Shown: positions 17,817 to 53,208, numbered from the stretch's first letter. The stretch is 64,000 nt of DNA from Protoeuglena noctilucae (GCA_958009085.1 OY253676.1:310001-374000); one strand, 5' to 3'. The notes: a model not told the origin generated them from the letters alone. Numbers and translations are program-made.

Positions 17817-18237
17817 CGCGACCTTGTCGTAGGGCGGGGCAACCCCTGCCAGTCGCGCTGCGCTTCCTGCGCTTCGCATCGCTTGCCTTCGCTCATTTCA
17901 ATTGCTTAACAAACCGCTTGCAAGCCATTGAACGCCGAAGTGCTCGTGTCTTCTTCATTCCTGCTTGCCTCGTGTGCTTGCTCGGGCTTCCGATTGTGAA
18001 CTTCTCAGGGGGCGAGGAACACGGCGATACCTGTGCCGAAGCTACTTGACTCGTCTTGTGTCCTGAGGCGGCCCCGGACGACCAGATAAGAGCGCGGAGG
18101 TGAAAGCAACGCGCCACCTCGCATCGGAAGAGTCTTTTGCAAAGCAAACGCTTTCATTAGAAAACAAAGTATAACCTCCTTCCGCTATCATGGGCTGTTG
18201 CGACAACGAGCAACAAAGCGATGAACAAGGCGGGCCT

Positions 18238-18269
18238 TGTTCATGGAGCACGGTGTTCATGGAGCACGG
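18238..18269. repeat. 16-bp perfect tandem duplication upstream of the pseudokinase-exonuclease gene
   Basis: tgttcatggagcacgg x2. Confidence 0.85.
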
Positions 18270-18307
18270 TGCATGTAACCCTGGACGCACGCTCTCTTCA
18301 TCCGCAG

Positions 18308-20427
18308 ATGGCCGCTGTCGTAGAGGCGCCAACAGAGGTGGAAAAGGTCCCGTTGACGAACGCGGGCATTCCGGATTGGGGCTTGGATGCGGTGGGAGGG
18401 GAGGTCAAATTTCGCTTCAAGCTTGACCGCGACGACGAGAGCCGGGGGCAATGCGTCGTGGTGCGTGGCCATCGTAGCCTGTACATATGTGTCGGCCAGA
18501 GCACGAGCGCGTTTATGACACAGCAAAGGGTGCTTTTGCTCAGGTCAAGCAATACCGCATCGGCGACCGGGACACCAAGGACGTCAAAGCAAGTCTGCGG
18601 CAGCTGATGGCAGGACCCGGAGCAAGCTACCTTTGGCCGTGAGTCGATGCTGTCGGCCAAGCGCATGGCACCAAGCATATCCCCTGCTCTCGTTTCACGG
18701 CAGCCCACTCCACCTACCCATCCACTGCAGGATGTTGGATGTCGAAACGTCTGTTGACGGCTGCCTGTCCGTCACATCTCCCTTCGCTTTTGCTGGGTCC
18801 CTGAAGACACACATGCGTCTTGATCGGGCCGCGTTCGGGGAGGCCAACATCAACAGGTTTTTGGACTTGGCGGAGGGGCTGCTCCTTGGCCTGCAGCACC
18901 TGCACGGGCAGGGCCACGCGCACGGCTACCTGACGCCAGGGACGGTGCTTTTCAGCGATGCTAGACGGGTGAAGGTGGCGGGGTTCGAGATGGCGGTGGT
19001 ACAGCCCCTGCTGGCGGATGCGCCTCAGGTAAGCTCGGCGCAGTGGAGCAGGTCGTGGGACTGTGCAAAGCCTGAAGAGGCTTTCACGACTTAAGGGCCT
19101 TCCCTTCGTGTGATTTCAGATCACCGGGTCGACAGCTCGGCACATGGCCCCGGAGCTCTTAAGCGCAGAACCAAACGCCAAGTCTGACGTGTACTCTGTC
19201 GGCATGGTGCTGCTCCATGCGACATCGCGTGAGGAGCCTTTCGGCGAGTTTGACGACTTCATGGACGTCTGCGGTGATGCCGGGAAGTACCTGCTGAAGC
19301 TTCACTTTAAGCAATATGGGTGGATGCCAGGGCCCATTCGCACTGCCATCAACCACGCCCTGCGATCGCCAGATCGCCGCCCCTCGATCGAGGCGTTCCT
19401 GGACGCTGTCCGCCAGAGTAGGTGGGCTGTGATGCATTCGTCACCTTGCAGGGGTCCTGGGCTCAGACACCACCAATGATATCGTGCGTGCACCCTCTTC
19501 CTCAGGGCACTGCTGGGCCAGCAGGATGACGCGGCATTTGACCTGGCGGCCCTCGGGGATGCCCTGCCTATCTCGCCGACGTGGGAGGGGCAGGAGCGCC
19601 AAGGGGTCATTACATGCTCGGATTGCAAGTACTCGTCCAACTCGACAGAGTTCCCCACCTGCACGCTCCGCTGTGGGTATGACCAGTGCTCCTGGCACCT
19701 GAAGAGTCCTGCAGAGCCCAGGCTCAGGTTAACGGCGGCGCCCCAGGACCTTGTGTACATATTTTACGATCTTGAGGTCGCCTACTATGCTGCGACCGGA
19801 GCCTGCCGCAGCCGGGCGCTCTGGGAGATCGGCGCGGTCGCCGAGGACGGGCGGTGCTTCACCAAGCGCGACCTCAAGGACGCTGGGCAGGAGGCCGAGA
19901 AGGACGCCGTGCGGGCGTTCCTGCAGTGGGTGTGCGACGTGTCAAGGTCCACCCTGGCAGAGAGAGGGCGTGAGGCTGTCAGCCCCGCGCAGGTGGTGCT
20001 GGTCGCCCACAACGGCAGCAACCATGACCATCACCTCCTCCTGGCTGCGGTGGAGCGCCACGGTCTCGTCATTCCCGACTTCACTCTGGGCGACAGCATG
20101 GTTGCCATCAGAAGGAATCTCCCCAGCGGCCTGGAGAATGCCCAGTTGCCTGAGACGCTGGTGCCCCATTACTCGGGTGACATGGTGCGGGGTAGGCCCA
20201 CAAAAAAACTCATGCACCACGGGGACGTCGATAGCGTGTTTTTGGCGGCTGTGGTGATGAGGTGGGACGTGAGAGGCTGGCGCGAGGCCCTGGGCAAGTA
20301 CTGCACGAGCGTGCAGCGGTACTGGGACTCACTCGGGGACCAGTTCGAGAGGTGGTTCTCCCACAAGAAAGAACAATTTTCTCACGAGTTCGAAGTGGGG
20401 TCTTTGAGCGTTTCAGACACCTTCTAG
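18308..20427 (+). CDS. Pseudokinase - Cys/His cluster - DEDDh 3'-5' exonuclease fusion protein (589 aa, 5 exons)
   Basis: Exons 18308-18460, 18544-18638, 18731-19028, 19120-19421, 19506-20427, all GT-AG, sum 1770 nt, open frame. Kinase fold: VVVK, LQHLHGQGHAHGYLTPGTVLF, VKVAGFE, HMAPE, KSDVYSVG, RRPS. Exonuclease motifs: FYDLE, LVAHNGSNHD, HHGDVD. Confidence 0.85.
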
Positions 20428-28897: not shown

Positions 28898-31491
28898 ATG
28901 CCCGGTGCCATGTACGTGAGAAGAGCGATGACGGAGGGGATGAAGGGCTCCGATTTCCTGCCCAGCCGCGAGCCCGGCAGGCTCCCGGGGACGGGGGTGC
29001 CGGCATTCCATCCAGAGGACGAGTTCGGCGGGGGGAGGGGCTTCGAGAAGACGTTTGAGGCGTCCTCCAGGCCGTTTGGGCTGTTGTCGCCTGAGGGAGG
29101 GTGAGAGGGAGCTCGGCGTGGCGCGGGAGGGCGGGACCCTCGCTGTGTCCATCGCGGTGCTGCGCCCTCCGCGCGGACGCGATCGAGCGTCGGAGGCGCC
29201 TCCCATGGGCCGCGCATGACAGCATGCCTTACGTGATCTATGTGCAGCGCCGTGGATGGCTAACGGCGACGATTTCGCGAGCTGTGCCGTCCCCGCAGGT
29301 CTGCGCTGCTCTCCAGCCTCCCTGGATACGCCGCGCTCGGGAACGCCGCGCTGGCAGTGGCCCTCGTGCTTCTGGCTCTGTCCAGCCTCTACGGGGCCGG
29401 GATGCACGCGGCGCTGCTCCTGGCCGTGCTGTGCGCTGGGGCTGCCGTGACGGGCGGGGCGTCAGCGGTGAGCGAGGGCCGGGCTCGCGCGCAAGGGTGC
29501 TTCCGCGGGCCGTGCACAGGAACTGCCTCGCACCGCAGGTGCTGCGACGCCCCAACACCAAGCTCCGGCTGGCGACGCTGGTCCTCATCGGGCTGGCGTG
29601 CGTGGCTGCCTTCAACTTCAAGACCGTCGTGGTGGTGCGTGGGCAGGGCGTTTAACGACGATGGCCCCGCTGCCTACCCGTCCCACATGGACTTGTTACC
29701 CGGCCGCTGCCTTGCCTTGCCCCATGCAATCCGTCGGCGCTCGCGCGGCTCGCAGGACGACCGCAACACGGCCTGTGCCTTCTCCGAGGCCTTCCTGCGA
29801 CTGGGCAACGTCGAGCAGGTCGTCTGGGATGACCACAACAGCGAGCTCATCCACACGCTGTTCAACAGGCAGGGAGCCGCACCCCTAGCCGCCTGTGCTG
29901 CGACGCCGCTCGCAGGTCGAGATGGGGAGAGCCGCACCCTTGCCAATCCTTCCAGCCCCAACTCCGCAGGCTCAGCGAGGTCGACTCCATGCTGAACTCG
30001 GCGCACAACGTGGCCACCATGCACATCTTCTCCGACGAGCAGGAGGGCGTCCGCAAGATGAAGTCCGTGGATGCCTCCTACCTCAAGAGCCGGCTGGACG
30101 CCGTCCGGGAGCACGCGCACCAGACCTTGACCTATCTCGAGAACCTGCACCGCAACCACACTGCGGCGAGTGCCGGGAGCGGGGTTGACGCGACGCCCTC
30201 TGCGCATGACGTCGGTCCCGTCGTGCGGCGCTGGCGATGATCTGGTCACTGCATATGCCCCTGCCCTGCAGGCCATGGATGCCGGCGTGGCCTCGAAGGA
30301 CATCCGGAGGAACGAGCGCGTGGTCCAGGCCATCGCCAGCCGCATGGACAACCGTTGAGGGGCTGAGCACACGCGCTCACGCTTCGCCACCGTCACCTGC
30401 ACACCGTGTCGCGTTTGACCTCTTCCGCTGCCGCTCACTCGCACCTCACGAAACTCCCCCACTGCGCTCTTCCCAGTTCGCGAGGTCATCGACTGGATGA
30501 ACAACCCCGAGACGAACGTCACGCCTGAAGACTACGAGCACGTCCTGGAGGTCCTCGTGGACCTGTCGGGGTTCCATCCGGACCATCTTCTCGAGGACAA
30601 CACCGTCCTGCGCCTGGCGGACACTGACCTGATGCGAAAGCTCGAGCCCGGTGAGATGGCCAAAGGGGCTTGATGAGGCGGACCAGGTTGGGCGGGCGGC
30701 CACTGCGTGTGGGTCTTCGTGCGGGTGCTCATTATTGACGGCGCTCCTGCAGTGCGGAACTCGCGATGTCTTTTTGTGCAGAGCTGCACGAGGTGCCTCA
30801 CGTCAAGGTGACCCTGGGGCGCTTCTCGAAAGATGACTACAAGTGGGAGCACGCGTTCGACAGGCAGAGGGAGGCCGCGGAGAAGCTGAACCGGGTGCGA
30901 AGCAGCGCTGGGGATGGCTGTTGAGGCTGGTGAATGAGAAGTGGTGTTTTGTGACTCGCTGGCCGTCTGTTGGTGTCAACGCCAGTGTGACCTGAAGTGC
31001 CCATTGTGCCTCTGCAGCATCAGGTGGCCAGGCTGCACAAGGCCAACTTTGAGTTCCAGAAGACCATGGAGGTGAGTCGACGCTTCTCATCTGCAGCTTG
31101 TGTGGGTTGGCCACACAGTGCGTCGCGCGCTGGCCGTGCCAGTCCTTGGCATGCTACGCCTTCCAGTCACACCCGGCACACGTCGGCGTTCGCAGAAGAA
31201 GATGGAGAAACTCCACGAGTCTTTCAAGATCGACAACCTCATCTCGCAGATGCCAAGCCACTGCGTGAATGAGAACAAGGCGAGCGGCCCCATGCTTCGC
31301 TCCGGTGCAGAGACCCACCCTGGGTGGAGCTGGGGGCCACGCTCGGCTGCCCTGTGTTTGCAATCTGTGGCGCTCTTCCACCGCAGACCATGTGGCTGTC
31401 CCAGCTCCTGGGGTGGGCGGCCATCCTGCTGCAAGGGGGCGCTGCATGGGCGATGGGCTCTGCCGTGGTGGATGACGTCAAGTCCGCGTGA
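28898..31491 (+). CDS. Unrecognised membrane protein: 3 N-terminal TM helices, long helical loop, C-terminal TM (about 11 exons)
   Basis: Frame-preserving exon chain; TMs AALAVALVLLALSSLY, AALLLAVLCAGAAVTGG, LATLVLIGLACVAAF and final WLSQLLGWAAILLQGGAAWAM; start uncertain. Confidence 0.6.
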
Positions 31492-31635
31492 GGGTATCCT
31501 TGGGCGTCGGGCCTGGCGAGCGCTGGCGAGCCAATTACTTGAATTGCTTTGTTCAGGCAGCTAGCTGACACGGTCGTACCGCAAGCAGAGCGGTGGGGAC
31601 GTGGGAAGTGAGGCGGCAACTACGCGTCACTCAGC

Positions 31636-32282
31636 TCACGGTCCGTATGCCTCCGGAGGCGGGGGCAGCATTTCCGAACCCCGCATGTCGAGCATGATTG
31701 TGAGGGCAAAGTATGCGAGGCCCAGGGCAATGGAAACTGCGCCGGTCCAGATAGCTGCGGGCAGGAACGGTGGGGTCGTGTTGATGCACGCATGGGGCCA
31801 TTCCAGGATGTCGCTGACGAGCTTGCCTGCGCCCCTCGCCACGCACCTGTGCNNNNNNNNNNNNNNNNNNNNNNNNNNNNNNNNNNNNNNNNNNNNNNNN
31901 NNNNNNNNNNNNNNNNNNNNNNNNNNNNNNNNNNNNNNNNNNNNNNNNNNNNNNNNNNNNNNNNNNNNNNNNNNNNNNNNNNNNNNNNNNNNNNNNNNNN
32001 NNNNNNNNNNNNNNNNNNNNNNNNNNNNNNNNNNNNNNNNNNNNNNNNNNNNCGTCGGCATCTCCAGGCCGTACTCGGACTTGGCAGCACGCTGCGGGGG
32101 TGCAATTCCGAGACGATGAGCGAGGCCTGGTGCGCAGGCCCGGCACTGGGAGGCTGGGGAGAGGGGCCGGCAGGCAGAGGAATGCTCACCCGACGCAGCG
32201 TCCTCCGCGAAGCCTGCCTGGGTCCGTTGGCGCCCCGGGTGCGCGGCGCCACCGCCCGCCCCGTCGGTGCGCACGCCTGCAT
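31636..32282 (-). CDS. Small single-TM protein, probably plastid-targeted; interrupted by the gap
   Basis: Arg/Ala-rich leader MQACAPTGRAVAPRTRG; last exon IWTGAVSIALGLAYFALTIMLDMRGSEMLPPPPEAYGP resembles, from memory, a small membrane protein family shared by cyanobacteria and plants. Confidence 0.55.
31853..32052. other. Assembly gap (200 N)
   Basis: Run of N. Confidence 1.
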
Positions 32283-38700: not shown

Positions 38701-41285
38701 ATGAGGGGATCGAGGCATTGCGGGCGGGGGGCGGGGCCGGGGCTGGGACCGAGGAGGCGGAGGGGCTTTACTTTCGTTTGAGAGACGTGGATCAGGCTGG
38801 GCTGGCGAGGGGCCGCGAGCTGCTGCAGCGATGGCGGGACATGAGCCGAGGGGTGGGCGACCCGAAGGACGAGCACACGAAGCCTCTCAAGCCCCACGCG
38901 TGTGCGATGGGTGAGAACCATAGCAGAGTGGGGTTGTGGCACAGAATGTTTGGGGCGGTGAGCGAGCGTGGCGCAGAGCGAGCGTGGCGCAGAGCACTTG
39001 GTGGCAGAGATCGACCATAGAATGGTGTGCTACCCGTCATACCGTGACCATCAGTGCCCTGTGCCCTTGCAGCGCTCCTCCCACTGGCGGCCCTGCCTGT
39101 GGCACCCCCGCCGCTGATGCCGCTAATGACTCCGGGGTCGCCTCTGTGGGACATCTACGCTCAGTGCGATGTCTGCGATGATCTCCGATCCCGAGATCGC
39201 ACAGGGAACCAGCTCAGCGCGCGTGTCAAGGTGCGGCATGCGATGGTTGTGGTATGGCGTGGACGCGCCACGCCCAATCCATGCCAAAGCCGTCCCACGC
39301 CGACTTCCTCGTTCTCTCAGACCTTGTTCGGGGCGATCGAGACGGCCCTCGCGTCCTACCCGCGGGGCCAGGCAGGGGGTGCTTGGTGGTGCGAAGGTGC
39401 GTGCTGCCCGCGACGCTGGGACACACTGCCTGCCGCCTCAGCCTGCCTCGCCACGTGGCCTCTGTGCGTGCGGCGACGCTTGAGATGGCTCCCGTTGTCC
39501 GATCCCTATCTCTGCTTCCGTCTCCGCTGCCTGCAGCCGGCGTGACCGCGGCAGTGAAGGACTTGTGCGTGCTGACGGAGCGGATGCCACCGGACGAGCC
39601 AGCCGGGGCGCGTGCCGATCTGTGGCCCGAGCTGGCGCAGGGCCAGCGCTCCGTCAGTAAAGTCGCGGAGATGGGCCGCATCTTGTCCCAGTACCTGGAC
39701 CTCTTTGAGCCGCCAACGAGGCCCCATGGGGCACCACAGGCCGGCGAGGAGGACAACGACCCAGCGGCGACGGTGCCAGAGTCTGCGCAGCGGTCCTCGC
39801 CTCGTCTGTGTGAGTCCGAGCAGCAACACCCGAGCACCTCGGGGGATGCACCGGGTGCAACCAGGGACGCAGCCGTCCGTTTGGTGGTTGCGCTGGCGGC
39901 CGTGGCGGGACAGGCCGGGCTCGCCATGTCCGCCTCGCCCCCCGCCGGGGTGGGTAGGTCGTACCTGGCCCCTTTCGCTCGCAAGCTAAGCGGGGAGGTC
40001 TCGGGTCCCGGGGAGGGCGAGTGGGACGCGCGGGGCGCTTGGGCGGCGGTGGTGGCGGAGGCGGTGGAAGCCAGCAAGGATGCTTGGGACCTGTGGCGGG
40101 TGGTCGCGGCCGTGATATGGTCTGGGAGAGTCGCCCTGCGGACGTATCTGGGGAAAGTCCAGTGAGTGCGGTGGGGCAGCCGCGGGCTGTGCTATGGGCC
40201 ACGCGCTCATGTGGCCGGCTTTCGTCGTGCTGCGACCTGGCTCGGGTCATCCTCGGCCGCTGCCCGGTCTCCGCAGTTACCTTTCCATCGACCACAAAAT
40301 CGGCGCTCACCCCTACCAGCCCTTCCCCACGGAGCGGCTACGCCAGGTGGTGGACGCGGTTCCGCCAGAGGCATATCCGCCCGAACTCCGCCCGCTCTGC
40401 TACCTGGAGCCTTCCCACGTGTACAAGGCGAGGGATCGCGAGGTCCACGTCCTTGCCCCGCAGCGCATCCCGCGCCGCGCTTGACGTGGCCCTGTGCGCC
40501 GCCCGCGCCCGCAGAGGGGCCCGGTGGTGCTGCCCAGCGGCGCGCAGGTAGCGGGGTTGGCGGGCACTAGCGGCCGCACGGAGGCGCTTCCCGGGCCCCC
40601 GACCCCGTCGTGGGCGGCGCTCCCATCTGCGGCTACCAAGGTGTCCAAGGTCTGCATCTCTTACGCCGAGTTCACCCGATCGGTATTTCCCAAGGTGAGT
40701 GCCGCAGCTCTTCGCTTCTGGGAGTCCGCAGCGTTTGCGACGATGACTTGACATGCGTCGTAGACCTGCTGTGTGCGTGGGGACGCCAGCCGGGGGACGT
40801 GCTCGCAGGGGACGGACGAGCCGTTCTACGGGAGGGTCAGGCGGGGGGCGCAGTCCGTGCGGGAGGCTGTCAAGGGCACTGGGCAGATGCGCAGGGGGCG
40901 GGGGTCCTCGCGGTCTCCGTCAGGGAGGGGTGAAGCCGGGGATGGCGAGGAGTCGGGCGCTGAGGCAGGCGAGAGACCCGGCAAGCAGGCTGGGGGCGCG
41001 CCGGGTGACGCGAGCGGGGGTGGCGGGAAGCGAAGGGCGGGGGCGACGGGGGAGCAAGCGTGGGCTGTGGGGCGCGGGCCAGCCCGCAGTGCTGCGTCCA
41101 GGAGGGGCGGGGACGTGGCCGGGGCCGCCCTTGGTGGGCGGACGAGGCTGGGGAGCGCAAGCTTATCCCAGGCCAGCAGGCGCGTGTCCGGCGTCGCATC
41201 GTTGGGGGCTCGGCCTCGTCGCGGGGTGCAGGCGGCGCGCCCGCTCAGGTCCGGCGGGGGAAGCATGCCGTTGATGCTGAAGTGA
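35714..41285 (+). CDS. Divergent XRN-family 5'-3' exoribonuclease
   Basis: MGVKGLTTW|, FDHVFVDMPCVLH, PRKSLFLALDGPAPLAKLLTQRVRR, LTPGTPFM, GEGELK, GADTDMLMMAL, GNDYL, YLFGLQWTIDMY. Confidence 0.85.
35753..35860. repeat. 58-bp-period tandem duplication inside XRN intron 1
   Basis: acggtggaacggtggcgggctagcacttggggcgcc(t/g)cgcctgccgcgcg at 35753 and 35811. Confidence 0.9.
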
Positions 41286-41808
41286 CGTGATTGAATCGAC
41301 GCGCGTGCCACAACCACCCATTCGCCGATGTCAGATGGAAAGCCCTTCGCCAGGGGGCGGGCGTTGCAACGAATTCCGCCAAGCCGCCGTCGTGGGACTG
41401 CAACTCTGCGTTTCGTAGCTCTGAAACAACGCATCGCTGACGACACCCAGCCCAGCACGCTCGAGCCTGCGGACAGCAAGAAAGAAAGCGTTGGCTTCGC
41501 GGCCCTGGCAGCCGAGCCGAGCCGGCCATGGGGCGGTGGGCCCCCCGACAGCTTCCGGTTGACAACCCTGAACGTGTTGCGCGGGTCCACGATGTGAAGT
41601 GGCGCACTATCGGGGTGAGCGGCCACGCTCCTTGTTGCCCCCGTCACGCTAGGGCCTATCCATGAGATCTTCGCCCGTAGATTTGTCTAAGTTTGTTGTC
41701 GTTGTCACCTGCGGCAAGGTCGGGGCCGGAATCGGTCGACTGTCGCCGGCTCGACTACATGCTCTCGCCTGATCGTGGGCGTGCCGTCCCTGTGCTGCCT
41801 GGTTGGCA

Positions 41809-43295
41809 ATGCTTGCGTCCCCCGCGTTCATTCGTGCGTCAGAGTCTCCGGAAACGCGATGTGCCGGCTGCCAGCCGAGGCAGCGCAAAGGGCGCCTTGT
41901 CTTCGGCGTGGCAGGGCTGCCAGCGGGCGCCTGGTCCCGTAAAAGGCCGGGCGCGCCCCTTTTCCGCCAATCACAGCTGTCATACTTCTCTGCTAACAAG
42001 CTACGGCTGCCCTGCCCCTCGCAGCTGGACTTGCAGGGGCTCGAGGCCCAGATGGCGGAGAGGCGCACGCGCGACGAGCAGGCGGCGCAGGCGGACAGAG
42101 AGGCGGCGGCGCAGGCCATCGCATGGGATCAAGAGCTGATGCGCCTGCAGGCGGAGGCACACCGGGCCCGGCGGGACTACAACAAGGCCGTGGTGCGTGG
42201 TGGGGGCATTTGGCGTGGCAAGATTGCGCTGCCACGGGCGGCCACGAACGCGAGTCTCGTCTGGCGTATCCGCAGGGAGACTTCCGCAAGACGCAGACGC
42301 TGGCGGGGACGCGGGAGTTCGACCTCAACGACCCCGACGCACTGAAGAAGGACCGGCCGGCGCGGGAGGGCGACGACGACCCGCGACTGGGCCCCGCGTC
42401 GCTGCAGAAGTTCGACGGCGAGGACCTGCAGCGCCAGGCACGCGAGGAGACGCTTCGGCAGGAGCTGCTGGACACGTGGCACGCGCAGCGGGCGGACCTG
42501 GAGGCGCGGGCACGGGCGGCGCGCGAGACGGGTGCGTCCCGCGCATCGACAGGGACGCAAGGACGCCGCGTCCCAACCTGAGGTGGCCTCACGACCGCTC
42601 CCGACGCTGCTTCCGGCCGCAGATGAGGACTACGCCAACGTGATGTCGGCACAGGCGGCTGCGCTGGGGCAGCTGGTGCGTGACGCCGAAGAGGCGCGCC
42701 GGGCCATGAACAGCGAGGTGCTCCGGCGCAACCTCGAGATGGCGGCGGAGCAGCGGGACCGCCAGTCGCACGAGCAGGCCATGGAGCAGATGACCAACGA
42801 GGCAGAGATCGACTACCACCGCAACGTGAGGGGCGCTGCGTTTGGAGGCACGCTGCTGGCCGGCGCGGACCCCGGAGTGGGGCTGAGGGGCTCTTGTCGC
42901 GGTCCCTGCAGGACCCCTGGCTGAATGAGCACCCTGGGACGACGGTGAACCCGGCGGGGACGCTGCGCAAGGACAACTACAAGGGCATGTCGCCCGAGGA
43001 GCTGCGGGCGATCCAGGAGGTGCGCGAGGTGCAAGTGCGGGCGGCGGAGGCGCGGCGGGCGGCTGCGGCGGCGGACGAGCTCGAGTACGCACGGCAGATG
43101 GTGGCTGTCAAGCGTGCGATGGACGACATGGAGCGGCGGCGTCGGGAGTTCATGGCCACGCAGAACCGCAGCATGGCCGAGTTCCAGCGCACCCAGGCCG
43201 CGGACGCGGCCGAGCGGACGAAGACGCTCAACGAGACGTACAGCAACCGCGTCACGCCCGACTACTTCCAGCAGTTCGGCCGCAGCCACCGCTGA
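41809..43295 (+). CDS. RIB43A: RIB43A-domain ciliary microtubule inner protein
   Basis: LDLQGLEAQMAERR, REFDLNDPDALKKDRPAREGDDDPRLGPASLQKFDGEDL, DPWLNEHP, RKDNYKGMSPEE, NRVTPDYFQQFGRSHR*; 5' end uncertain. Confidence 0.92.
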
Positions 43296-43455
43296 CGTGG
43301 TCGCGCATGCCCTCACTGCGGGGGGTGGTTGTGAATGGCCCATGGAGCGGGCGTGACACATCTGTTGAAGTCTCTCTTGGCAAACTTCCGCATCCTCACT
43401 CCGACTGTGCACGCTGCAGCACATCTGACACAGTAACTACCCTGGGTCTTAAGCC

Positions 43456-43612
43456 GATCATCGGGAAAACCCGGCGATTTGACGTCACTCGGATCAGAAG
43501 GATCGCGGGAATCACTGGATTCACCCCAGTGATCCCCGGGAATCGCCGGGATCATCCCCGTGATCCCGGCGATCCCCGCCACTGCCGCAGTGATCCCAGC
43601 GATCCCGGGCCG
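43456..43612 (+). repeat. Left TIR plus subterminal repeat array
   Basis: gatcatcgggaaaacccggcgatttgacgtcactcggatca followed by many gatccc/gggatc/ggaatc motifs in both orientations. Confidence 0.88.
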
Positions 43613-44150
43613 CGGCCCTGACGCGCGTGCGCGCCCCCGCGTTTGCTCAGGGGGCTCGAGAGGAGGCGGAGAGACCGCACATTTGCTAGTTGGTGCTAAT
43701 GACTGCCTCGGAGGCCCCTCTCGCGTCCTAAAGCTTGCTCCAGCATGCAGACGGGGGCCGTCGACGCATCCGGGGTCCGCTTCCCCTGCGCCGCCGCTGT
43801 TCAACGTGAGATGTCCATATCTATGCGATGAGCGGGAGCTCGCGGGCTCGCCGGGCCCCCGGGGGCGCCGGGGAGGTCCCCGTGCTCGACCAGGCCTACC
43901 GCCGCCGCGGCCGCGATCGGGCACGCAGCGCTTGGCCTATGGATTGAGGTGACCTAAATCTCGCTAGCTGCGGCGCCTTTGCCGGCTACGCCGCACGGAG
44001 GTGGCTGCTGCATGGGAGGTGAGCCGTCCCCGCCGTCATGGCGCTGCGGATGGGGGCGCGGGGCTGGCTTCGGAGAATTATCTCGATACAGATGACATCG
44101 CCGGCGTCGGGGACCTGGCACCGCGAGCATCGGGGAGCTCCTGGGGTCAC

Positions 44151-47100
44151 CTACTCCTCGCCGCCGCTGGCGTGGTGCTCCCAGACCTGCTGCACGTGGC
44201 CGCAGTGGAGAAGCTTCCCAGCAACTTTCACGGCGTGAAGCTGCCGCCGAAGGTTGCGGAGGGGCACGCACTTCAGAGCCTCGCCCTCCGCAGGCTCCAG
44301 GAGCGACAGCTGGGGAGGCTGCAGCGCTCCCAGGTTGGTGTAGAACGACAAGCACTGGTTGGACAGGTACCTCAGGTCGCATGGGGCCCTGTGCACCGGG
44401 GCCACCAGGGCGCAGAGGAAGGTCCCGGCACCGGAGCTGGTCTTCGCCTCAACCCCGCACACGACCCTGCCCGTCTGCAGCGTGCCCCTGTCCGGGAGGT
44501 ACTCGACGAAGGACAGGGTCTCGTCGGTGGCGACGATCCTGGCCCGGTCCCCGCTGGCCGTCCCGATCTCGACCGTGGAGGTCAGCGCGACCTCGCCCAA
44601 GACGTGGCAGGGAAGCCCCGCGCCCTTGAGGGCGTTCAGGAGGTCTGCCTTAGAAACGAAGTCTTCCGCGCGTCCCTCGCTGCACAGGTCGTTCTTCTTC
44701 AGGACGGTCTTCACGCCCTTCACTTGGTCCTCGGGCTGGGACGGGACCGGCTGCTCCGCCCTCGCCCGGCTCTTGATGACGGAGGCCGCCCTCTGAGAGA
44801 TGACGCTGGTGCTCGCCTGCGACAGGGCTCGGGGGTCAGTCCAGCGCGGCTCAGCATGGCACGCGGGTCGAGCGCCGTGCGACCGCATCGAGACGTGTGA
44901 GTCGCAAGAAACGCGTCCTGCGTGGGCTTCCCCGCGTCGCCTACGCTGGGCGGCGCTTCTTGCCTGTACCTGCACGTCGCCCTTGCCGTTCGTGCGCGCG
45001 TTGGCAATGGGCTTGTGCATGCGCTCGGCGTCGTTCATGCTGCCCAACATGATGGAGCCGTTCCTCGCCACCACTGCAGGGAAATGCGAAAGCGCGTGGC
45101 ACTTCTGGCTGTTCTCGATCTTGCTGAAGAGGGGCTTCTCCGTGCGGACGATTTCGTGGCCACGCAGCAGCGTCTTGAGCACGACCTGCGGCGACACGGC
45201 AGCGACAAGGCTTCCAGAGTGAGTAAGGGGCAGCGAACGATGGGGCTGGTGTTGGAGAAGGCCTCACGTGGAGGACCTTATTCAGCTGCGCGTCCGCCGC
45301 CTGCGCCCCTGCGATGGTGGCGCTCTCCAGGGACCATTCGGCATAGAGCTGAAGGCATGCCAGGGCTACGGCCACGAGCCCAACCCTCTCGTCGTGCACG
45401 TCTTTGCTGCCCGTAGGCTCTGCAAGGGATGTGGTGGTGGGGAAACACTCCCGGGGTTCCCCGGCCCGCATCGCGATACCCGCAGCTCCTCCCGATGCCC
45501 TCGCAGCGCTGACTGTCGGCCTCGCCTCGAGAGAAGAGCTCGACGAGGGCGAAAGGCAGAGCTTGGATCAAGAACCTCGCCTCGTACGCCTTTATCTTCC
45601 CAAACGGGTCCACGAGGCTCAGCACGATCTGGAAGGTCTCGCCCCACGGACGGGCGTGGATCCATGCCGGGGCCTGCGCTCCACCCACACGACGATGGAC
45701 ATGCCAGGTGAATACCGAGCAGCTGCGGCGCCACTGCAGGCAACGCACGCCATTGCCTGACCTGCAGCTCACCTTGGCATCCGCAATGATCGATGCGAAC
45801 GCAGCCAAGAGGGCGTTTGCCTTTGTCGCAGACTCTCCCGCTGCCGCGTTGTTGTAGAGGACGGTCAGTATGCAGAAGGGAACAGTCTTGCCCAACATTC
45901 CCAGTTCCACGGTGTGCATGGGGTCAGGTGCTTGGCCCTGATACAAGTCCGACCCGAACTCGTCCCAGTACGACAGGGCAGGAACCACAGGATGAATTTT
46001 GCTCTCCCTGGCTTGTTCGTTGGCCCTGGCCGTCCCCACGTCCCTCCTCAAGCGCAGGATGTGCTGCACCTGGAGGCGATGCAGCGCGACGGTGCGAGGC
46101 GTGCGGCAGTCATCCTGGAGGCACAGCGGGCACGACCTGACGGCCAGCGTGGACGAGTTGGCCATCATGTCGTTCAGCTGCGCCGCCAAGACGGGAAAGA
46201 CGATGACTCTCCCGACGTCGGGGAGGGTCATCCACACCCCACCGGACCTCGCCACGCCAATCAGCTGCCGGTCCACGGCAGCCAGCCGCCGCTGGATGGC
46301 CTCTCTGTTGTTCAGGTCTGCCTGTGACCCCGGAGTGATCCCGGACACCTGCGGGGGCCTCGAGCGACAACTCATACACGCGGCGTGGTGGTGGACGTGT
46401 GGGCTGCAACGCCGGCAATCCTCCTCTCGCCTTCATGGACTCGACGGTGGCCACGGTTCGCGGCGTCCCTGTCCTCACGGCCTTGCAAGGCGACAGGAGG
46501 TGCATGTGGATGGGCGTCGTCGATGCGCCCTTGGTCATCTCCACCCCGTTGATGCTGTACGCGACGGGCACGAGGAGCAGCCGGGCGTGCAGCTCGGGGC
46601 GGACTTTGCCAGCGACAGCCTCGGCTATGTCGCTATACCCCTTCGCCCGGGAGAAGGTGAGCTTCTCGTGGATGCTGGGATGCGTCTCATGTGGTCTCGC
46701 CCGCGCCTGGCGTGACCGTTCCCGTGCCTCGCTGAAGTCTCGCATCAACTTAACGAGCGTCTTGGGCTTGATCTGCTCCGCGTGCACCAGCATGTCCCTC
46801 AGCACCGTTATCGTTTGGTAGATGATGGTTGTGCTGCCCTCCTCTTGCAAAACCTGCAGGCCGTGCGTGCACTGGTTGGCGTCAGCCCCCTCGGCCGCGT
46901 CCGAGGCCCTCGACACAAGCGGCACCGCGGCGTGACGCACCTCGTACTGGCCATGGATGCTGTTGAGTGAGGTGTGGAACGTGCGGTGGGAGCGCCCGAG
47001 GTCGAGAAGGTCGTCGCGGATGTCGGGGCGCAGCTTCACGAAGCAATCGAAATGCGCTGCCGTCAGCGATGCCATGAACTGCGCCCCTGCTTCAAGTTGG

Positions 47101-47609
47101 CTCAGGTACTCATCGTCACTGTCCCTGCTCCTGGCCCGCCATGCCTCCAGGTCCTCCGGCAGCTTCAGCGGTTCGTACTCCCCGGGCGCAGGAAGGTAGG
47201 AGACTCCAGGAGCGTCCTCTTGGGGCGCATCATGCGCTCCGGCGCTCTCGGGCGGTTCACCCCTCTCCGAGTCAATGTCCACGTCCATGTCCACGTCCGT
47301 GTCGGCGTAGTGGAGCCACGCGAGTCCTACATCTTCGCTCTCGCCATCACTGCCCGCAGCAACGTCCGCCGTCCCGTCTTCCTCCCGCAGTTCTTGGTCT
47401 GGTCCCGCGCTGGCGCTGTCGCGTGCCAGCCCGTCCGAGCCTCGCAGAGACGGAGAGACATAGTGTTCGTGTGGGGCGGCGGGGCGGGGTGCTTCCTGGC
47501 GGCTCTCCTCGCCATATCTCCAGCCCCACAGCGCAGGGCATCTTTGCTGATGCCGGGCGAGCTTGGCCGGGGTATCGAATTGCGTTCCACACGCGTCGCA
47601 TTCGAGCAT
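44151..47609 (-). CDS. Plavaka-like DDE transposase with N-terminal C2H2-type finger (about 950 aa, 7 exons)
   Basis: Exons about 47609-46941, 46853-46431, 46348-45773, 45673-45526, 45419-45277, 45185-~44970, 44816-44151. CDACGTQFDTPAKLARHQQRC; VPVAYSINGVEM..PIHM; GRVIVFPVLAAQLNDMM..CPLC; PDPMHTVELG (DxxH); QKCHALSHFPAVVARNG..DAERMHK..RTN. Alternative start at 47654. Confidence 0.82.
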
Positions 47610-48864
47610 GGTGAGCTGCAGCGCAGGTTGCGATGCAGGGTTCAAGGCGGGCATGGTGAGGGCGTGGAAGCGGAGGTGAGGAAAGTCCAGCGCGCGCTCT
47701 GTGGGTCAGGCAGGCTCAGGGGTCGTCAGTCCTCCAGGCAAGCGGGGGTGGATTGCAGGGCTGCAGCGACAGCACCGCGCACAGGCGAGGCTCGGCGCTG
47801 CTGGTGCGAACAGCGCTGGATCATCGTCCCTCTCTAGGGTGAGAGTGCAGCCTGCTGCTGAGCCATCTGCGAGGTGTGCTGACGTGGCTGGGGAGGGGAG
47901 GGGCCAGCTCCCGTGAGGTGAGATGCAGCATACGCATGACTAGATCAGGTCGGACATTGTCGCTGTCCCCGAGGTGCGCGGTTGGTCTGCTGCGCTACCG
48001 GTGGGGTCTGGGACACGGTCAGGTGTGCAAGGGGGGGTTGGTTGGCTGGGAGGGACGAAGGGCTGGTCCGCCAGCGTGGTATCTCTGTACTTGCTAACTG
48101 TACCTGGCACCGTGCCTGCACTCTCTCACCCCGAGACTGACTCTAACTTCGCCTAACAAGCACGCAGGCGCATGTGCCACCTCGTCCCAAGTTCCGGCGC
48201 TGGTCGGGTGCTGGCCGGGCCCGCCATGGCTCGTCCGCCGACCCATGCCCCTTGTCTGTCGTCTGGCGTCCGCGGCGCCCCGCAGCGGTGGTCATCGACT
48301 CCTGGGGCGGCCGTCGGCACGGCGGAGTCGCGCACGCCACCATCTCCCGAGTGCCTGGCCCGAGTGCCGGAGCGCCGCTCCCCGATGGAGCGGCAGCGTC
48401 CGGAACAAGCGGTCGGTGCCTCTGGCGGTGGTCGCTGCGCGCTCCCGTCGCGCCTGCGGCCGCCCGAGTCCGGCTGCATGTGCGTGCATGAGTGCGTTGC
48501 CTAGAGCGTCACGGATGGTCATGTAACCTCGGCGTAGGGATTGAAATACCAATAGCTACGCTAGGGAGCGATTACGGGCCGAACGGAGCCCCCCGGGCCG
48601 CGCGGGCCCCGGAGCGCGGGTGCCCAAAAGATGCGTCCGATCGCGATCAAGATAGGTCTGATCGCGGCCGAGAAGGAAGATAGGCGGCGGGATAGCCTCG
48701 GCTAACGCTTCCGGCGCCGCTGCGCTCCCGAGTGGGCCCCGCTCCCCGCGATCCCCGACCACGACGAAATGCCGCGAAACTGCTCCCAGCGGCCTCTCGC
48801 ATCCCGGGTGCGCCGTGGCCGTAACCGCGCCGCGTAAAACGGCCTCCCCAGGGAGATCGGGCGC

Positions 48865-49034
48865 GCGGCTGGAATCACTGGGCTCAATGAGGGTTTACAT
48901 TACAGTCTGTGTCGTCAGTGGGATCACTGGGATGATCCCTCTGATACCCCGGGATCAGCGGGATGATCCCCACGATTCCTGGGTATCACGGGGATGATCC
49001 GACTGACGCCAGACTCGCGGTTTTCCCGATGATC
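48865..49034 (-). repeat. Right subterminal repeat array plus TIR
   Basis: Repeated gggatca/gggatgatccc motifs, then tgatccgactgacgccagactcgcggttttcccgatgatc. Confidence 0.88.
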
Positions 49035-49158
49035 ATGTCTTCTCGCACCAATCGCACCCGCGTTTGCCACTCTCCGGAGCCAAGGCAGTGCCTGCAGGGG
49101 CCCGTCCGAGCAGCTGCATCGCGGTTCCCTCCTGGTTCTTTCCCGCCTCGGCACAACG

Positions 49159-50690
49159 ATGGCGCGGTGGTGGTCCGGCGTGGTGGCCGCGCTGGGAGGG
49201 GGACGGGAAGATTCCAGCTCGCTTGACGCGTATGCGAAAAGGCTTGACACGCTCAGCGAAGCTATCGCGGGCGCCCAGGACAGGCTTGCGTCGCTCGAAA
49301 GCGACGCGAGATGGTTCGGTCGCGTCATTGGGTACGGGGGCTTCGTGTCCGTCGCACTGGCCGGAATTATCGCGGGCCGCGAGTTCCAGGCCGCTGCAAG
49401 GGGCCAGGTGCGCATGACTCGCCATGGGAACAAAGCACCGGCGCGAGATTCGATGCTCCCGTTCATCGCCGCGCTGCTCCGTGCCCGCAGCCGCTTTCGT
49501 GGACGTCAGTATGGCCGACCTTCTTCCCCGTCGTTGCGCTGCTCGTTGTTTGGGCAGCAGCCGTCGTGGCGCACCGCGTCGCCTTCTCCGTGCTCACAAG
49601 CGCTGCGAAGAAGCGGATCGCGCGGCTGCAGGAGGAGAAGGATGCGCAGACGGGGTCCATTGTGAAGGCGACGGCATTCGAACAAGTGCTGCAGATCCCG
49701 CTTCGCCACAAGCCCGACTCGGTGTATGCAATGCTGCGTCGTCACGGCACGGAGCTGACGGACGTAATTGAGAAGCACCTCCGCCGAGAGCCCCAGGACC
49801 CGCAGGCCGGGTTCTTCGGCAAGCTCACGGACCGCATCGACAAGTTCATGGCCTTAGAGCACATGAAGATGCAGCTGGGTGAGTGGGTGCCGGCCAACGC
49901 TTTCCACTCGCTTTGGATCCCCAGCTGCGCAGCTGGAGAGGGACCCCTGGCACCCGGCCGCGTCCGCAGAGCATCTGCAAGTGGAGAACAGCGCCCTGCG
50001 CCGCCAGATCCACATCATGGGCCAGGAGCGGGAGTACCTAGTGTCCGAGCTCTGCGTGTCGCTCGACCTCAGCCGACACCAGGCCGAGGAGCGTGTGCAC
50101 CGGCAGATGGGGCTCGTGAGCCACGAGGGCGGCCGGGGAGACGCCGAGGACGCCACGGTGAGGACGTGGCCTTGTTTGCATCGGCGACGTGGTCGTCATG
50201 GCATGTGCGATGTGGTCACGATGCCCACCTGCTCCTCGCCCCGCAGTCGGTGCTCAGCCTCGGGTTCCGTCCTGCGCCAGCGAGCGTCCAGAGCGTGCGG
50301 CCGGTGCGCGCGCGCAGCATCGTCAAGCACGCCTCTGCCGCCACTGCGGCCATGAGTGAGGCTCCCGTGTCGGTTGCCCGGGGTGGTCCGGTCGCGGTGC
50401 CCACGCGGTCCGTGGCTGGCCAACCGCCCCGCCCGCAGCGCAGCTTGTCGCGCAAGGTGGCGGGGCTGGCCGGCGGGGTCACGGCGGCTCCGTCCCAAGC
50501 ATGCGAGCTGGAGGGTAGGCCCAGCATCAGCGAGGCCGAGAGGCGCAAGGGCGAGACGAGGGTCATGGAGGGCACAGAGGATCGAACTGAGACGTGGGCC
50601 AGCGCGTGCGCAGATGGCACGGCACAAGGGGCGACGTGCCAGGACGACGACATGCTCAGCGTGGGCAGTGAGCGCAGCCCCAGCCCCTGA
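49159..50690 (+). CDS. Lunapark-like two-TM ER protein (no C-terminal zinc ribbon seen)
   Basis: YAKRLDTLSEAI coiled coil, TM hairpin, KKRIARLQEEKDAQ..IVKATAFEQVLQI..KPD, GFFGKLTDRIDKFM; layout matches the Lunapark N-terminal half. Confidence 0.5.
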
Positions 50691-50810
50691 GCCACCTGGC
50701 AGCAGCCGCGCTTCAAAAAGCTAGCGTTACTTGAAACGAACCTAGGACCCGGCAGTTGGATATAACTACGATGTTGGAGATGCAGATCTATCTATCCGTC
50801 GCCGTTCAGG

Positions 50811-53208
50811 TCACGCCGCGCGCAAGTCCTCGAAACGCCGCCTCATCGTCTCGTCGTCCACGTCCGCGCCGACTCCCCGGTCCCCCACTGCGATCACGGC
50901 GCAAGCTCGTCACGCGCCCGCCTGCCGGCCTTACAAGGGGCCTTGTGTGGTCGGTGCGGTCAGATCACAGCCATGGCACACTGCTCACCGGAGAGCATGA
51001 TGGGCTCGTTGGCGTGGCGGTCCAGCGACTGCACCTTGGCCACGAGAGAGCCGCCGCGCTGGTGCCACTCGTGCTGCCGACCGGAGTCGAGGTCCCTGCG
51101 CGCAGAGCGTGGCATAGCATGCTCAGCACATTTGCATTTATCCGGGCAACAGCCGCCTGCCGCGAGAGGAGCAGCGCGTCACCTGGCTTGCACGTGGAGC
51201 TTGGACGACTCGTCGACCCGGAACGTGATCTCGATCTGTGGTGTCCCGGCAGGCGCGGGCGGGAGGCCCAGGAGGTCGAATTGCCCAAGCACGCCGTTCT
51301 GGTGCGTCCAGGGGGAGTCGCCTTCGAGAATGGCCACGCAAACTTCGTCCTGCACAGCACGGAGGAGGCTCGCAGAGCTTCATTGGAGGCATGCGGCACG
51401 AGTCGGCTCGACGCACCAGACCTCGGCGAACGCTAGCTGCACACCTGGTTGTCGTGGGCAGTGGTGAAAACCTGGGAGCTGACGGCAGGAAGCGGGGACT
51501 CGCTGGGAATGAGGACGTAGAAGCGGCCCCCCGCCGTCTCGACGCCGATGTTTGCGCGGCGCTTGGGCAGCTGCCATCCGGCGAAGCTGTCGCGGTACGC
51601 TGCGATTGGCAGTAAGAAGCAAGGGCATTAGTCGTCGCAAGACAAAGCGCACTTGAGCCCCCAGAGGCCCCAAAGACTTTATGCCAGGGCCCAGTACCTG
51701 TGTTGTTGCTCAGCTTGTGCGGCGACGGCCGCCACTCCGCCCGCGGCGCCTCCTCCCTCGGCGGCAGCTGGTGCTGGTGGTAGTTGTCGCCGTATGTCGT
51801 GTGCCCGTCCAGCTTGTGCGGCGACTTGGTGGGTGCCGGCGGAGCGTACGGCTGCTGGGGAGGGAGGGGCTTGGCCTCAAACTCCTGCCTGTAGCTCGTC
51901 ACGCCATCCATCTTGTGTGGCGACGGCCGCCATTCCGCCCGCGGCGCCTCCTCCCTCGGCGGCAGCTGGTGCTGGTGGTAGTTGTCGCCGTATGTCGTGT
52001 GCCCGTCCAGCTTGTGCGGCGACTTGGTGGGTGCCGGCGGAGCGTACGGCTGCTGGGGAGGGAGGGGCTTGGCCTCAAACTCCTGCCTGTAGCTCGTCAC
52101 GCCATCCATCTTGTGCGGCGACGGCCGCCATTCCGCCCGCGGCGCCTCCTCCCTCGGCGGCAGCTGGTGCTGGTGGTAGTTGTCGCCGTATGTCGTGTGC
52201 CCGTCCAGCTTGTGCGGCGACTTGGTGGGTGCCGGCGGAGCGTACGGCTGCTGGGGAGGGAGGGGCTTGGCTTCAAACTCCTGCCTGTAGCTCGTCACGC
52301 CATCCATCTTGTGCGGCGACGGCCGCCATTCCGCCCGCGGCGCCTCCTCCCTCGGCGGCAGCTGGTGCTGGTGGTAGTTGTCGCCGTATGTCGTGTGCCC
52401 GTCCAGCTTGTGCGGCGACTTGGTGGGTGCCGGCGGAGCGTACGGCTGCTGGGGAGGGAGGGGCTTGGCCTCAAACTCCTGCCTGTAGCTCGTCACGCCA
52501 TCCATCTTGTGCGGCGACGGCCGCCATTCCGCCCGCGGCGCCTCCTCCCTCGGCGGCAGCTGGTGCTGGTGGTAGTTGTCGCCGTATGTCGTGTGCCCGT
52601 CCAGCTTGTGCGGCGACTTGGTGGGTGCCGGCGGAGCGTACGGCTGCTGGGGAGGGAGGGGCTTGGCCTCAAACTCCTGCCGGTAGCTCGTGACCCCGTC
52701 CATCTTGTGCGGCGACGGCTGCCACTCCGCCCGCGGTGCCTGCTCCCTTGGAGGAAGCGGCAGCGGCTGCGAGGGGCGGGTGGATAGGACTGACGTTATG
52801 AATCGTCACAGCGACGTCGATTCTTGCGCAACGCCGCGCTGGAAGCACGGGGTCTCACCCTGTATTCGTCGTCATAGGACGACATCGCATCAAACTTGGC
52901 GGGCGGCCTGAAGGCAGCTGCCTGGGACAGGAGCGTGTTCGGCATGGGTGCGCCGGGCTTTCCCGGCGTCGAGAAGCGCGGCGGCTGGGACACCCCGGGG
53001 TGCAGCTGGATCTCCCTGCCCCGCATGTGCTCGACGAGCTTCCCACGGTCCATCACGTAAGGGTTCTGGGGCCAGAGACCGGGCGGGTATGATCCCAAAA
53101 CCGGACGGTGATCCAGCGCCTCACGTGTTGCCTCAGCTTCGGGCCCGATAGTGTTCAGGGGCTCACCATGGACCCCCCCAACGAGTCGCCCAGGCCGTCC
53201 CCCGTCAT
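50811..53208 (-). CDS. SAXO/STOP-type Mn-motif repeat microtubule inner protein fused to an Hsp70 substrate-binding beta domain (FAP363-like)
   Basis: 33-aa repeats with TSYRQEF/TTYGDNY motifs, then spliced IGVETAGGRFYVLIP..SQVFTTAHDNQ|DEVCVAILEG..LGQFDLLGLPPAPAGTPQIEITFRVD..LHVQA|RD (Hsp70 SBD-beta); start uncertain. Confidence 0.85.
51714..52703 (-). repeat. Coding tandem repeat, 198 bp (66 aa) x5, near-identical
   Basis: Unit MDGVTSYRQEFEAKPLPPQQPYAPPAPTKSPHKLDGHTTYGDNYHQHQLPPREEAPRAEWRPSPHK; period 198 (gccatccat at 51903 and 52101). Confidence 0.97.

Follow-up and report, generated by a model that had tools for sequence, protein, structure and literature searches.

We describe a mobile element in a 64,000-nt stretch of the genome of Protoeuglena noctilucae (GCA_958009085.1, OY253676.1:310001-374000; this whole stretch is referred to hereafter as the window). 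Positions 43459-49031 are likely to be a single copy of a DNA transposon of the Plavaka lineage, a cut-and-paste element that belongs to a young family with many copies. An initial annotation of the same DNA had proposed a complete DNA transposon bounded by terminal inverted repeats (TIRs) and carrying a Plavaka/EnSpm transposase. The Pfam family that was matched, the set of proteins recovered from the ESM Atlas, the order of motifs in the protein and the termini all agree with that proposal. Neither observation named at the outset as refuting the proposal was made: some similarity to a DDE profile was detected, and many copies share the termini. Coordinates of the features are collected in Table 1.

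Ends, target site and copies of the element

A perfect 16-nt inverted repeat pairs positions 43456-43471 with 49019-49034; at three mismatches or fewer it occurs twice in the whole window, where 0.30 occurrences are expected by chance. The limits of the mobile unit were set with four public runs (X3, X12, X13 and X14), which were compared with positions 41000-51500 of the window. Contigs from these runs are interrupted at the ends of the element, and the loose contig ends listed (6 of 26) carry six distinct flanks that are not those of the window. Left loose ends join the element at 43459 (X13 and X14) and right loose ends depart from it at 49031 (X14), 49033 (X3 and X12) and 49036 (X3). The right-flank contig of X3 begins at 49002, placing the first unique base at 49032 if the contigs were built from 31-letter words, which we take to be the word length. 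The points at which other copies depart from the window thus delimit a mobile unit of 5,573 bp at 43459-49031. The inverted ends of the 5.58-kb unit proposed initially are real, although each had been set 3 bp too far out. The outer GAT/ATC of the 16-nt repeat is flank, since the unit begins at 43459 and ends at 49031. The 5' terminus reads CATCGGGAAAACC and the 3' terminus GGTTTTCCCGATG, the right end being the reverse complement of CATCGGGAAAACC. Perfect complementarity between the ends covers these outermost 13 nt and imperfect pairing extends over ~38 nt (33 of 39 alignment columns identical).

On both sides the unit is flanked by the dinucleotide AT, which is a candidate target-site duplication of 2 bp. 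AT reads the same on either strand and so mimics part of an inverted repeat; the outer GAT/ATC may consist of this AT/AT pair and a single G/C match due to chance. No joint spanning the element, as an empty site would give, was seen among the joints listed from the public runs (15 of 20); X13 and X14 include little or nothing of the flanks, which carries no weight either way. Inside the TIRs, both ends have subterminal arrays built of short GTGATCCC / GGGATCA-type repeats, some of them arranged in 31-nt units; GATCCC occurs five times in the 200 nt next to the left end.

The family has many copies and was recently amplified. The left-flank contig of X3, a run labelled with one organism, is unspliced through host introns, and because contigs of this run cross host introns unspliced, X3 is a DNA run. 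Word depth in X3 was 154.2 and 229.8 for the flank contigs and 3,575-4,145 for contigs inside the element. An internal contig of 3,029 nt (44675-47703) had a depth of 4,144.5, which is 18-27 times the depth of the flanks; this ratio stands in for copy number without counting copies. A contig from X13 showed 9 differences from the element over 5,575 letters (~99.8% identity). The reading frames of the element fall into two protein clusters, with 28 and 16 members. Their most frequent open reading frame (ORF) variants were found on 55 contigs and 61 contigs, respectively, and the ORF rows listed include at least 13 different contigs of more than 100 kb, the longest being 1.2 Mb. One joint in X3 (44578>47838) skips 3,259 nt (44579-47837) at a depth of 127.8, with 29 letters on its shorter side, and probably represents an internally deleted, non-autonomous copy at about single-copy depth. 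Further copies in the window were not found by blastn, by tblastn or by the terminal motif. Searches of metagenome and genome contig collections by protein, and of metagenome, genome and viral contig collections by terminal DNA pattern, gave no match.

The transposase and its placement

A single gene on the minus strand occupies the middle of the element. The initial annotation had described a stop-free gene of seven exons and ~950 aa; the stop-free coding region on this strand stands, but our model has six exons, 2,886 nt and 962 aa. GC content at the three codon positions is 0.661/0.462/0.824 (GC1/GC2/GC3) and the pattern GC1 > GC2 << GC3 holds in each exon. The start ATG is at 47609-47607, with a further in-frame ATG upstream at 47654. 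Elsewhere in the element, no ORF of at least 70 aa shows the codon-position GC pattern of coding sequence, so that nothing points to a second or passenger gene. The C-terminal domain encoded by exon 6, which the initial annotation had proposed to be beta-rich, was modeled with AlphaFold without an alignment; mean pLDDT was 46.2 and pTM 0.38, making the model unusable for a fold search. At 47271-47303, RNA contigs vary by short inserted letters in a GACATGGACGTGGAC repeat that encodes an acidic DVDMDVD stretch, suggesting length variation among copies at this repeat.

Introns 1, 2 and 4 have the host-style form GTGAG...GCAG, and intron 5 begins GTACAG. Introns 2 and 5 are predictions only because both are in frame and stop-free. 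Two introns had initially been called GC-AG, like those of the host, and a long residence in this lineage had been deduced from them. Both calls are ambiguous: a canonical GT donor lies 48 nt upstream in intron 1 and a GT-AG option exists for intron 3, both in frame. The likeness to the host was not borne out, as each of the ten introns with RNA support in the flanking host genes is of the GT-AG type (83-101 nt long in nine cases). Nor is long residence supported, since the ~99.8% identity of copies speaks for recent amplification while being silent on age in the lineage.

All of the motifs listed in the initial annotation were found, namely the C-x2-C...H-x3-C finger, CPLC, DPMH, KCHALSH and ERMH. 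The RNase H core motifs are likewise present, except that in this copy Asn replaces the Asp of the family at the presumed first catalytic position. In order, the protein contains SI[D/N]354G, LND437MM, C450PLC453, D519PMH522, KCH699ALSH703 and AE723RMH. With columns matched by order and context, the arrangement D..D..CxxC..DxxH..HxxxH..E fits the EnSpm/Mirage/Chapaev/Transib/Plavaka (CMCT) clade, which is described as having three catalytic residues plus two C and three H, and whose members have 5'-CA..TG-3' ends and target duplications of 2-5 bp (PMC12730594). The ends of this element (CATC...GATG) fit, and it has AT/AT flanks at one locus.

Raw frames and single exons were scanned against Pfam at E values up to 10. 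The sole transposase family matched was Plavaka (PF18759), on exon 2. In a feature search of the ESM Atlas with exons 2-3, 23 of 30 matches fell in the Plavaka set at 0.92, which we treat as a lead. With exons 5-6, all 30 matches were without a family; the nearest named clusters, which carry DUF6830 (0.87) and DUF4218 (0.86), are likewise only leads for the C-terminal part.

Two types are distinguished within the lineage: PlavakaA, in which TGT..ACA ends go with duplications of 2 bp, and PlavakaB, in which 5'-CATCA..TGATG-3' ends go with duplications of 2 or 3 bp (PMC12730594). From the supplement of that paper, where the name PlavakaB occurs 55 times, 28 PlavakaB consensus sequences were compared. 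All 28 of these start with CATC, 27 with CATCA and one with CATCG, and several continue G-n-AAAAC. PlavakaB-1_RuGr starts CATCAGGAAAACC and is identical to our element at 12 of 13 bases (PMC12730594, supplement). The termini here are CATCG..CGATG, against the PlavakaB signature CATCA..TGATG. Judged by its ends the element appears closest to the PlavakaB type, and we place it as Plavaka-like and putatively PlavakaB on the fit of its ends and motif order, the profile match being below threshold.

Besides the nature of the depth ratio as a proxy, several observations weigh against this reading. The PF18759 match (E 0.0072, 16.0 bits) lies below the cut-off of 26.3 bits and covers only positions 198-317 of the 325 in the profile. 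A 127-aa sub-piece of exon 2 gave the best score (E 0.0056, 16.4 bits), also below the cut-off, and the stretch expected to carry the first Asp had no Pfam match at E up to 10. The Atlas matches share just 150-154 of 256 features, with a recognition value of 2146, under the mark of 2300. A phmmer search with the exon 1 frame (531 aa) against 1.84 billion representatives returned members of its own family and one low-complexity sequence but nothing else, and word-indexed protein searches gave no relative beyond the element's own cluster. The fifth terminal base is G, where the usual PlavakaB base is A. The 2-bp duplication is seen at the single locus for which both flanks are available, and at this base composition two dinucleotides would agree by chance with a probability of 0.076; in other copies the left flanks listed end in AA and AA and the right flanks start with AT, AT, AT and CT, and these are unpaired. 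Sense-strand spliced RNA was absent among the joints listed and no sense intron has RNA support, all four of the listed joints inside the element being GT..AG on the plus strand, antisense to the transposase.

The sub-threshold similarity to the Plavaka profile and the lack of a sequence relative in any protein search also favor a transposon of the CMCT clade outside Plavaka, either EnSpm/CACTA proper or an unnamed lineage with PlavakaB-like ends. We regard this as unlikely, although it is the strongest of the alternatives. Divergence within CMCT is so large that the author of PMC12730594 treats the relations of its lineages as uncertain, and three Puccinia families that resemble Plavaka in their proteins are classed there as EnSpm by their ends. 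EnSpm proper is opposed here by ends that are not 5'-CAC..GTG-3' and by flanks without a 3-bp duplication (GAT vs ATC). The profile checks proposed at the outset gave a match to PF18759, if a sub-threshold one, but Transposase_21 (PF02992) was unmatched in every exon at E up to 10. Against an unnamed lineage stand ends that closely fit the PlavakaB signature; the choice between Plavaka and a separate CMCT lineage was made on ends, motifs and profiles, and placement inside Plavaka is accordingly provisional. The least probable of the readings considered is an element of KDZ type (Kyakuja/Dileera/Zisupton). Cysteine-rich motifs and an N-terminal finger would suit it, and KDZ and Plavaka have historically been discussed together (PMC12730594). 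However, no KDZ or CxC family of Pfam was matched at E up to 10, and the flanks here (TAAGCCGAT vs ATCATGTC) have no 8-bp direct repeat of the kind that Zisupton makes; the same source states that Plavaka has no similarity to KDZ (PMC12730594).

The orientation of the listed joints could also mean that the true gene lies on the plus strand, in which case the supposed minus-strand transposase would be no more than a frame that happens to stay open opposite a GC-rich gene. At 66% GC, long frames of this antisense kind are not unusual, and the X12 contig that carries the 46657-46859 joint crosses sense intron 1 unspliced. Nevertheless this explanation is very improbable. The minus-strand model keeps its codon-position pattern throughout all exons, the Pfam match is specific to the minus-strand frame, and the CxxC, HxxxH and E motifs stand in their proper order on that strand. 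Coding differences among copies are synonymous except at codon 354. A plus-strand coding reading was tried and rejected for want of a convincing frame in the spliced RNA, in which the longest ORFs are 169-299 aa and rich in R, G, W and C. A transposase of the Plavaka lineage, encoded on the minus strand, is the reading we prefer.

Codon 354, proposed mechanism and antisense RNA

The D354N substitution is private to this copy. At position 46550 the window has T, while C makes up 100% of the depth in all four runs, and cluster members that cover codon 354 have Asp in 5 of 5 cases. The remaining two coding differences from the family are both synonymous. From its place in S-I-D-G, before the second Asp and CxxC, codon 354 most likely encodes the first catalytic Asp, and this copy, although structurally complete, probably makes no active enzyme. 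Because both ends are kept, it could still be mobilised by the enzyme of a sister copy.

In the mechanism that we propose, the N-terminal zinc finger of a transposase of ~962 aa would recognise the termini together with the subterminal GTGATCCC-type motifs, an RNase-H-like DDE core would act through D354, D437 and E723, and a further domain lies at the C terminus; we infer both the catalytic residues and the target of the finger. Enzyme from intact copies would bind both ends and cut at CATC.../...GATG. Reinsertion would proceed through a 2-bp staggered cut, leaving AT/AT at this locus; we infer a 2-bp duplication as the rule of the family, as we do the positions of the introns. The copy described here, with D354N, would move only with enzyme supplied by its sisters.

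The RNA joints inside the element come from X12, a marine metatranscriptome in which joints of the flanking genes are correctly oriented (GT..AG in plus-strand genes, CT..AC in the minus-strand gene at 50.9-51.4 kb). The 46657-46859 junction recurs in ORF P0008, on three contigs. Another RNA contig runs from 47149 out past the right end into a flank that is not that of the window, and because this flank is unlike the window's, the contig derives from another copy. The plus-strand RNA is most simply read as the product of read-through or of antisense transcription, spliced at cryptic sites, though it may have a regulatory role. A further reading, in which transposition of the family is under way in wild marine populations and the RNA, with its four canonical GT-AG introns, is not mere read-through noise but a conserved antisense transcript restraining the transposase, seems distinctly unlikely. 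If true, antisense restraint would be an element- or host-derived layer of control not described for Plavaka or EnSpm.

Table 1. Features of the Plavaka-like element, in window coordinates
Feature	Position	Strand	Basis
Left candidate target duplication, AT	43457..43458	.	Read directly; same as 49032-49033
Left terminal inverted repeat	43459..43496	+	End alignment; unlike flanks in X13 and X14
Left subterminal repeats, several GTGATCCC / GCGATCCC-type motifs, ~31-nt spacing	43505..43609	+	Families D1-D3, D5
Exon 6, 221 aa, C-terminal domain, GC3 0.905; stop TAG 44151-44153	44154..44816	-	Reading frame; no Pfam family
Exon 5, 72 aa; H699-x3-H703 and E723 (KCHALSH ... AERMH)	44970..45185	-	Presumed zinc ligands and third catalytic residue
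Antisense intron, GTGAGT...GCAG, 288 nt	45219..45506	+	RNA run X12, one contig, depth 14.5, shorter side 201 letters
Exon 4	45268..45419	-	In frame, no stop; begins 45406 under alternative intron 3
Intron 3, GC-AG, 106 nt, or in-frame GT-AG, 73 nt	45420-45525 or 45407-45479	-	Predicted
Exon 3	45526..45673	-	In-frame sequence reading
Intron 2, GT-AG, 99 nt; in frame, stop-free	45674-45772	-	Predicted only
Antisense intron, GTGAA...GCAG, 350 nt	45708..46057	+	X12, depth 7.56, shorter side 27 letters
Exon 2, 192 aa; D437 (LNDMM), C450-x2-C453, D519-P-M-H522	45773..46348	-	Pfam Plavaka match region, Atlas, motifs
Intron 1, GT-AG, 130 nt; alternative GC donor at 46430, 48 nt downstream	46349-46478	-	Predicted
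Exon 1, 377 aa; N-terminal zinc finger, acidic low-complexity stretch, helical region, putative first catalytic position	46479..47609	-	Sequence reading
Codon 354, AAC (Asn) here, GAC (Asp) in family; AYSIDGVEM	46548..46550	-	Public runs and cluster members
Antisense intron, GTGAGC...TGCAG, 203 nt	46657..46859	+	X12, depth 25.4, shorter side 116
Antisense intron, GTGTG...CCAG, 179 nt	46972..47150	+	X12, depth 10.5, shorter side 26
N-terminal finger C-x2-C-x12-H-x3-C (CDAC...HQQRC), presumed DNA-binding	47538..47600	-	Sub-threshold zf-C2H2 (E 0.057-0.088) and direct reading
Region of ~1.26 kb without coding signature, presumed promoter and 5' leader	47610..48867	.	ORFs of at least 70 aa all flat in GC1/GC2/GC3
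Right subterminal repeats, three 31-nt units and more GGGATCA / GGAATCA motifs	48868..49012	+	Families D1, D2, I1, I2, I5
Right terminal inverted repeat	48995..49031	-	End alignment; X3 right-flank contig
Right candidate target duplication, AT	49032..49033	.	Read directly

Genomic setting and comparison with known systems

The host is a GC-rich, intron-rich marine flagellate, and the stretch is present in marine metagenomes and metatranscriptomes of several studies. The initial annotation had taken it for a probable green alga, which the content of the window does not support. Pelagomonas was set aside as a candidate, because its 0.45 introns per gene and intron-length peak at 210 bp (PMC9481584) disagree with the 83-101-nt introns found here. 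The element begins 163 nt past the stop of a gene for RIB43A, a flagellar ribbon protein (E 6.7e-24), and ends ~130 nt before the start of the next gene and ~50 nt before that gene's RNA contig. Because the intergenic gap is short, the promoter of the next gene may sit within or across the insertion. The RIB43A gene has four introns (41424-43374), and the region of the next gene is 49084-51444. A 555-aa frame on the minus strand at 51141-52805 matches SAXO1-2 (stabiliser of axonemal microtubules) weakly and at several places, along with other families of low complexity; this flagellum-related, SAXO1-2-like frame adjoins the insertion. Other genes in the window encode XRN, RRF, MTP18 and further flagellum-related domains. 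GC content, measured in 2-kb steps, is 58-71% over the whole window, with dips to 0.58 and 0.61 at 30001-32000 and 18001-20000 and ~0.66 elsewhere. No pair among ten host introns scored 18 or more for introner-like similarity, and Rfam and tRNA scans of the window found none.

The family looks recently active, with many near-identical copies, insertion sites that differ between environmental samples and an internally deleted derivative, and it may serve as a marker of strain variation. In its Asp354 consensus form it could supply a transposase to a lineage for which genetic tools may be missing. These findings leave the known workings of such elements unchanged. By title, no Plavaka of a marine planktonic protist was present among the literature matches listed. 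Literature searches with the 13-nt terminus CATCGGGAAAACC gave only unrelated papers, none of them on transposons by title or abstract, and "EnSpm" with "haptophyte" gave only an irrelevant match.

Among known systems, EnSpm/CACTA (maize En/Spm) has in common with our element the subterminal arrays, the order of catalytic motifs and the 5'-CA..TG-3' ends. Unlike EnSpm/CACTA, the element lacks a CACTA terminus, a 3-bp duplication, a match to Transposase_21 and a second (TnpA-like) gene. In RAG1, 20 residues separate the second His from the Glu, the same spacing as is found here, and target duplications of Transib are 5 bp. Exons 1, 2 and 5 had no sequence match to any solved structure, however, RAG1 included; sequence searches of the PDB with these exons gave nothing meaningful, the best hit being a designed coiled coil (E 0.15).

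The initial annotation had described Plavaka as mainly fungal, a view now dated: Plavaka is already reported outside fungi, from red algae and from the green alga Auxenochlorella. The EnSpm-Plavaka elements of Auxenochlorella (bioRxiv 10.1101/2025.02.07.637104), to which ours is likened by description, are also Plavaka-type cut-and-paste elements; they reside in a small genome and are reported to be potentially active, with polymorphic insertions. In the red alga Bostrychia, giant elements assigned to Plavaka on the homology of their transposase, their terminal motifs and the length of their duplications likewise place the lineage outside fungi (bioRxiv 10.1101/2025.02.11.637652). These are 17-19 kb long with three accessory genes, are mostly degenerate and make up one third of the genome (bioRxiv 10.1101/2025.02.11.637652), whereas the element described here is 5.6 kb, has no accessory gene and exists in nearly identical copies.

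The closest comparison is with PlavakaB of Agaricomycotina fungi (Kojima 2025, PMC12730594). Differences lie in the host, here a GC-rich marine flagellate, in a protein too divergent for the Pfam threshold or phmmer, and in the fifth base, which is G here and A in 27 of the 28 families listed. The TET/JBP passenger gene is absent here, and at 5.6 kb the element is shorter than the fungal consensus sequences listed (~6-24 kb). Both share the CATC start and GATG end and the CATCnGnAAAAC-type start, and PlavakaB-1_AuCo starts with CATCG, as here. A 2-bp duplication (in our element a candidate one), a size of several kb and a single large transposase gene are also common to both (PMC12730594). What is modestly new is a PlavakaB end signature kept in a marine protist, along with a catalytic-site mutation private to one copy. 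On this placement PlavakaB, a type defined until now from mushroom-forming fungi, would extend to a marine planktonic eukaryote. In protist genomes, where elements of this kind go unnoticed, such termini may aid annotation: the terminal dozen bases are still recognisable while the transposase has diverged past ordinary search.

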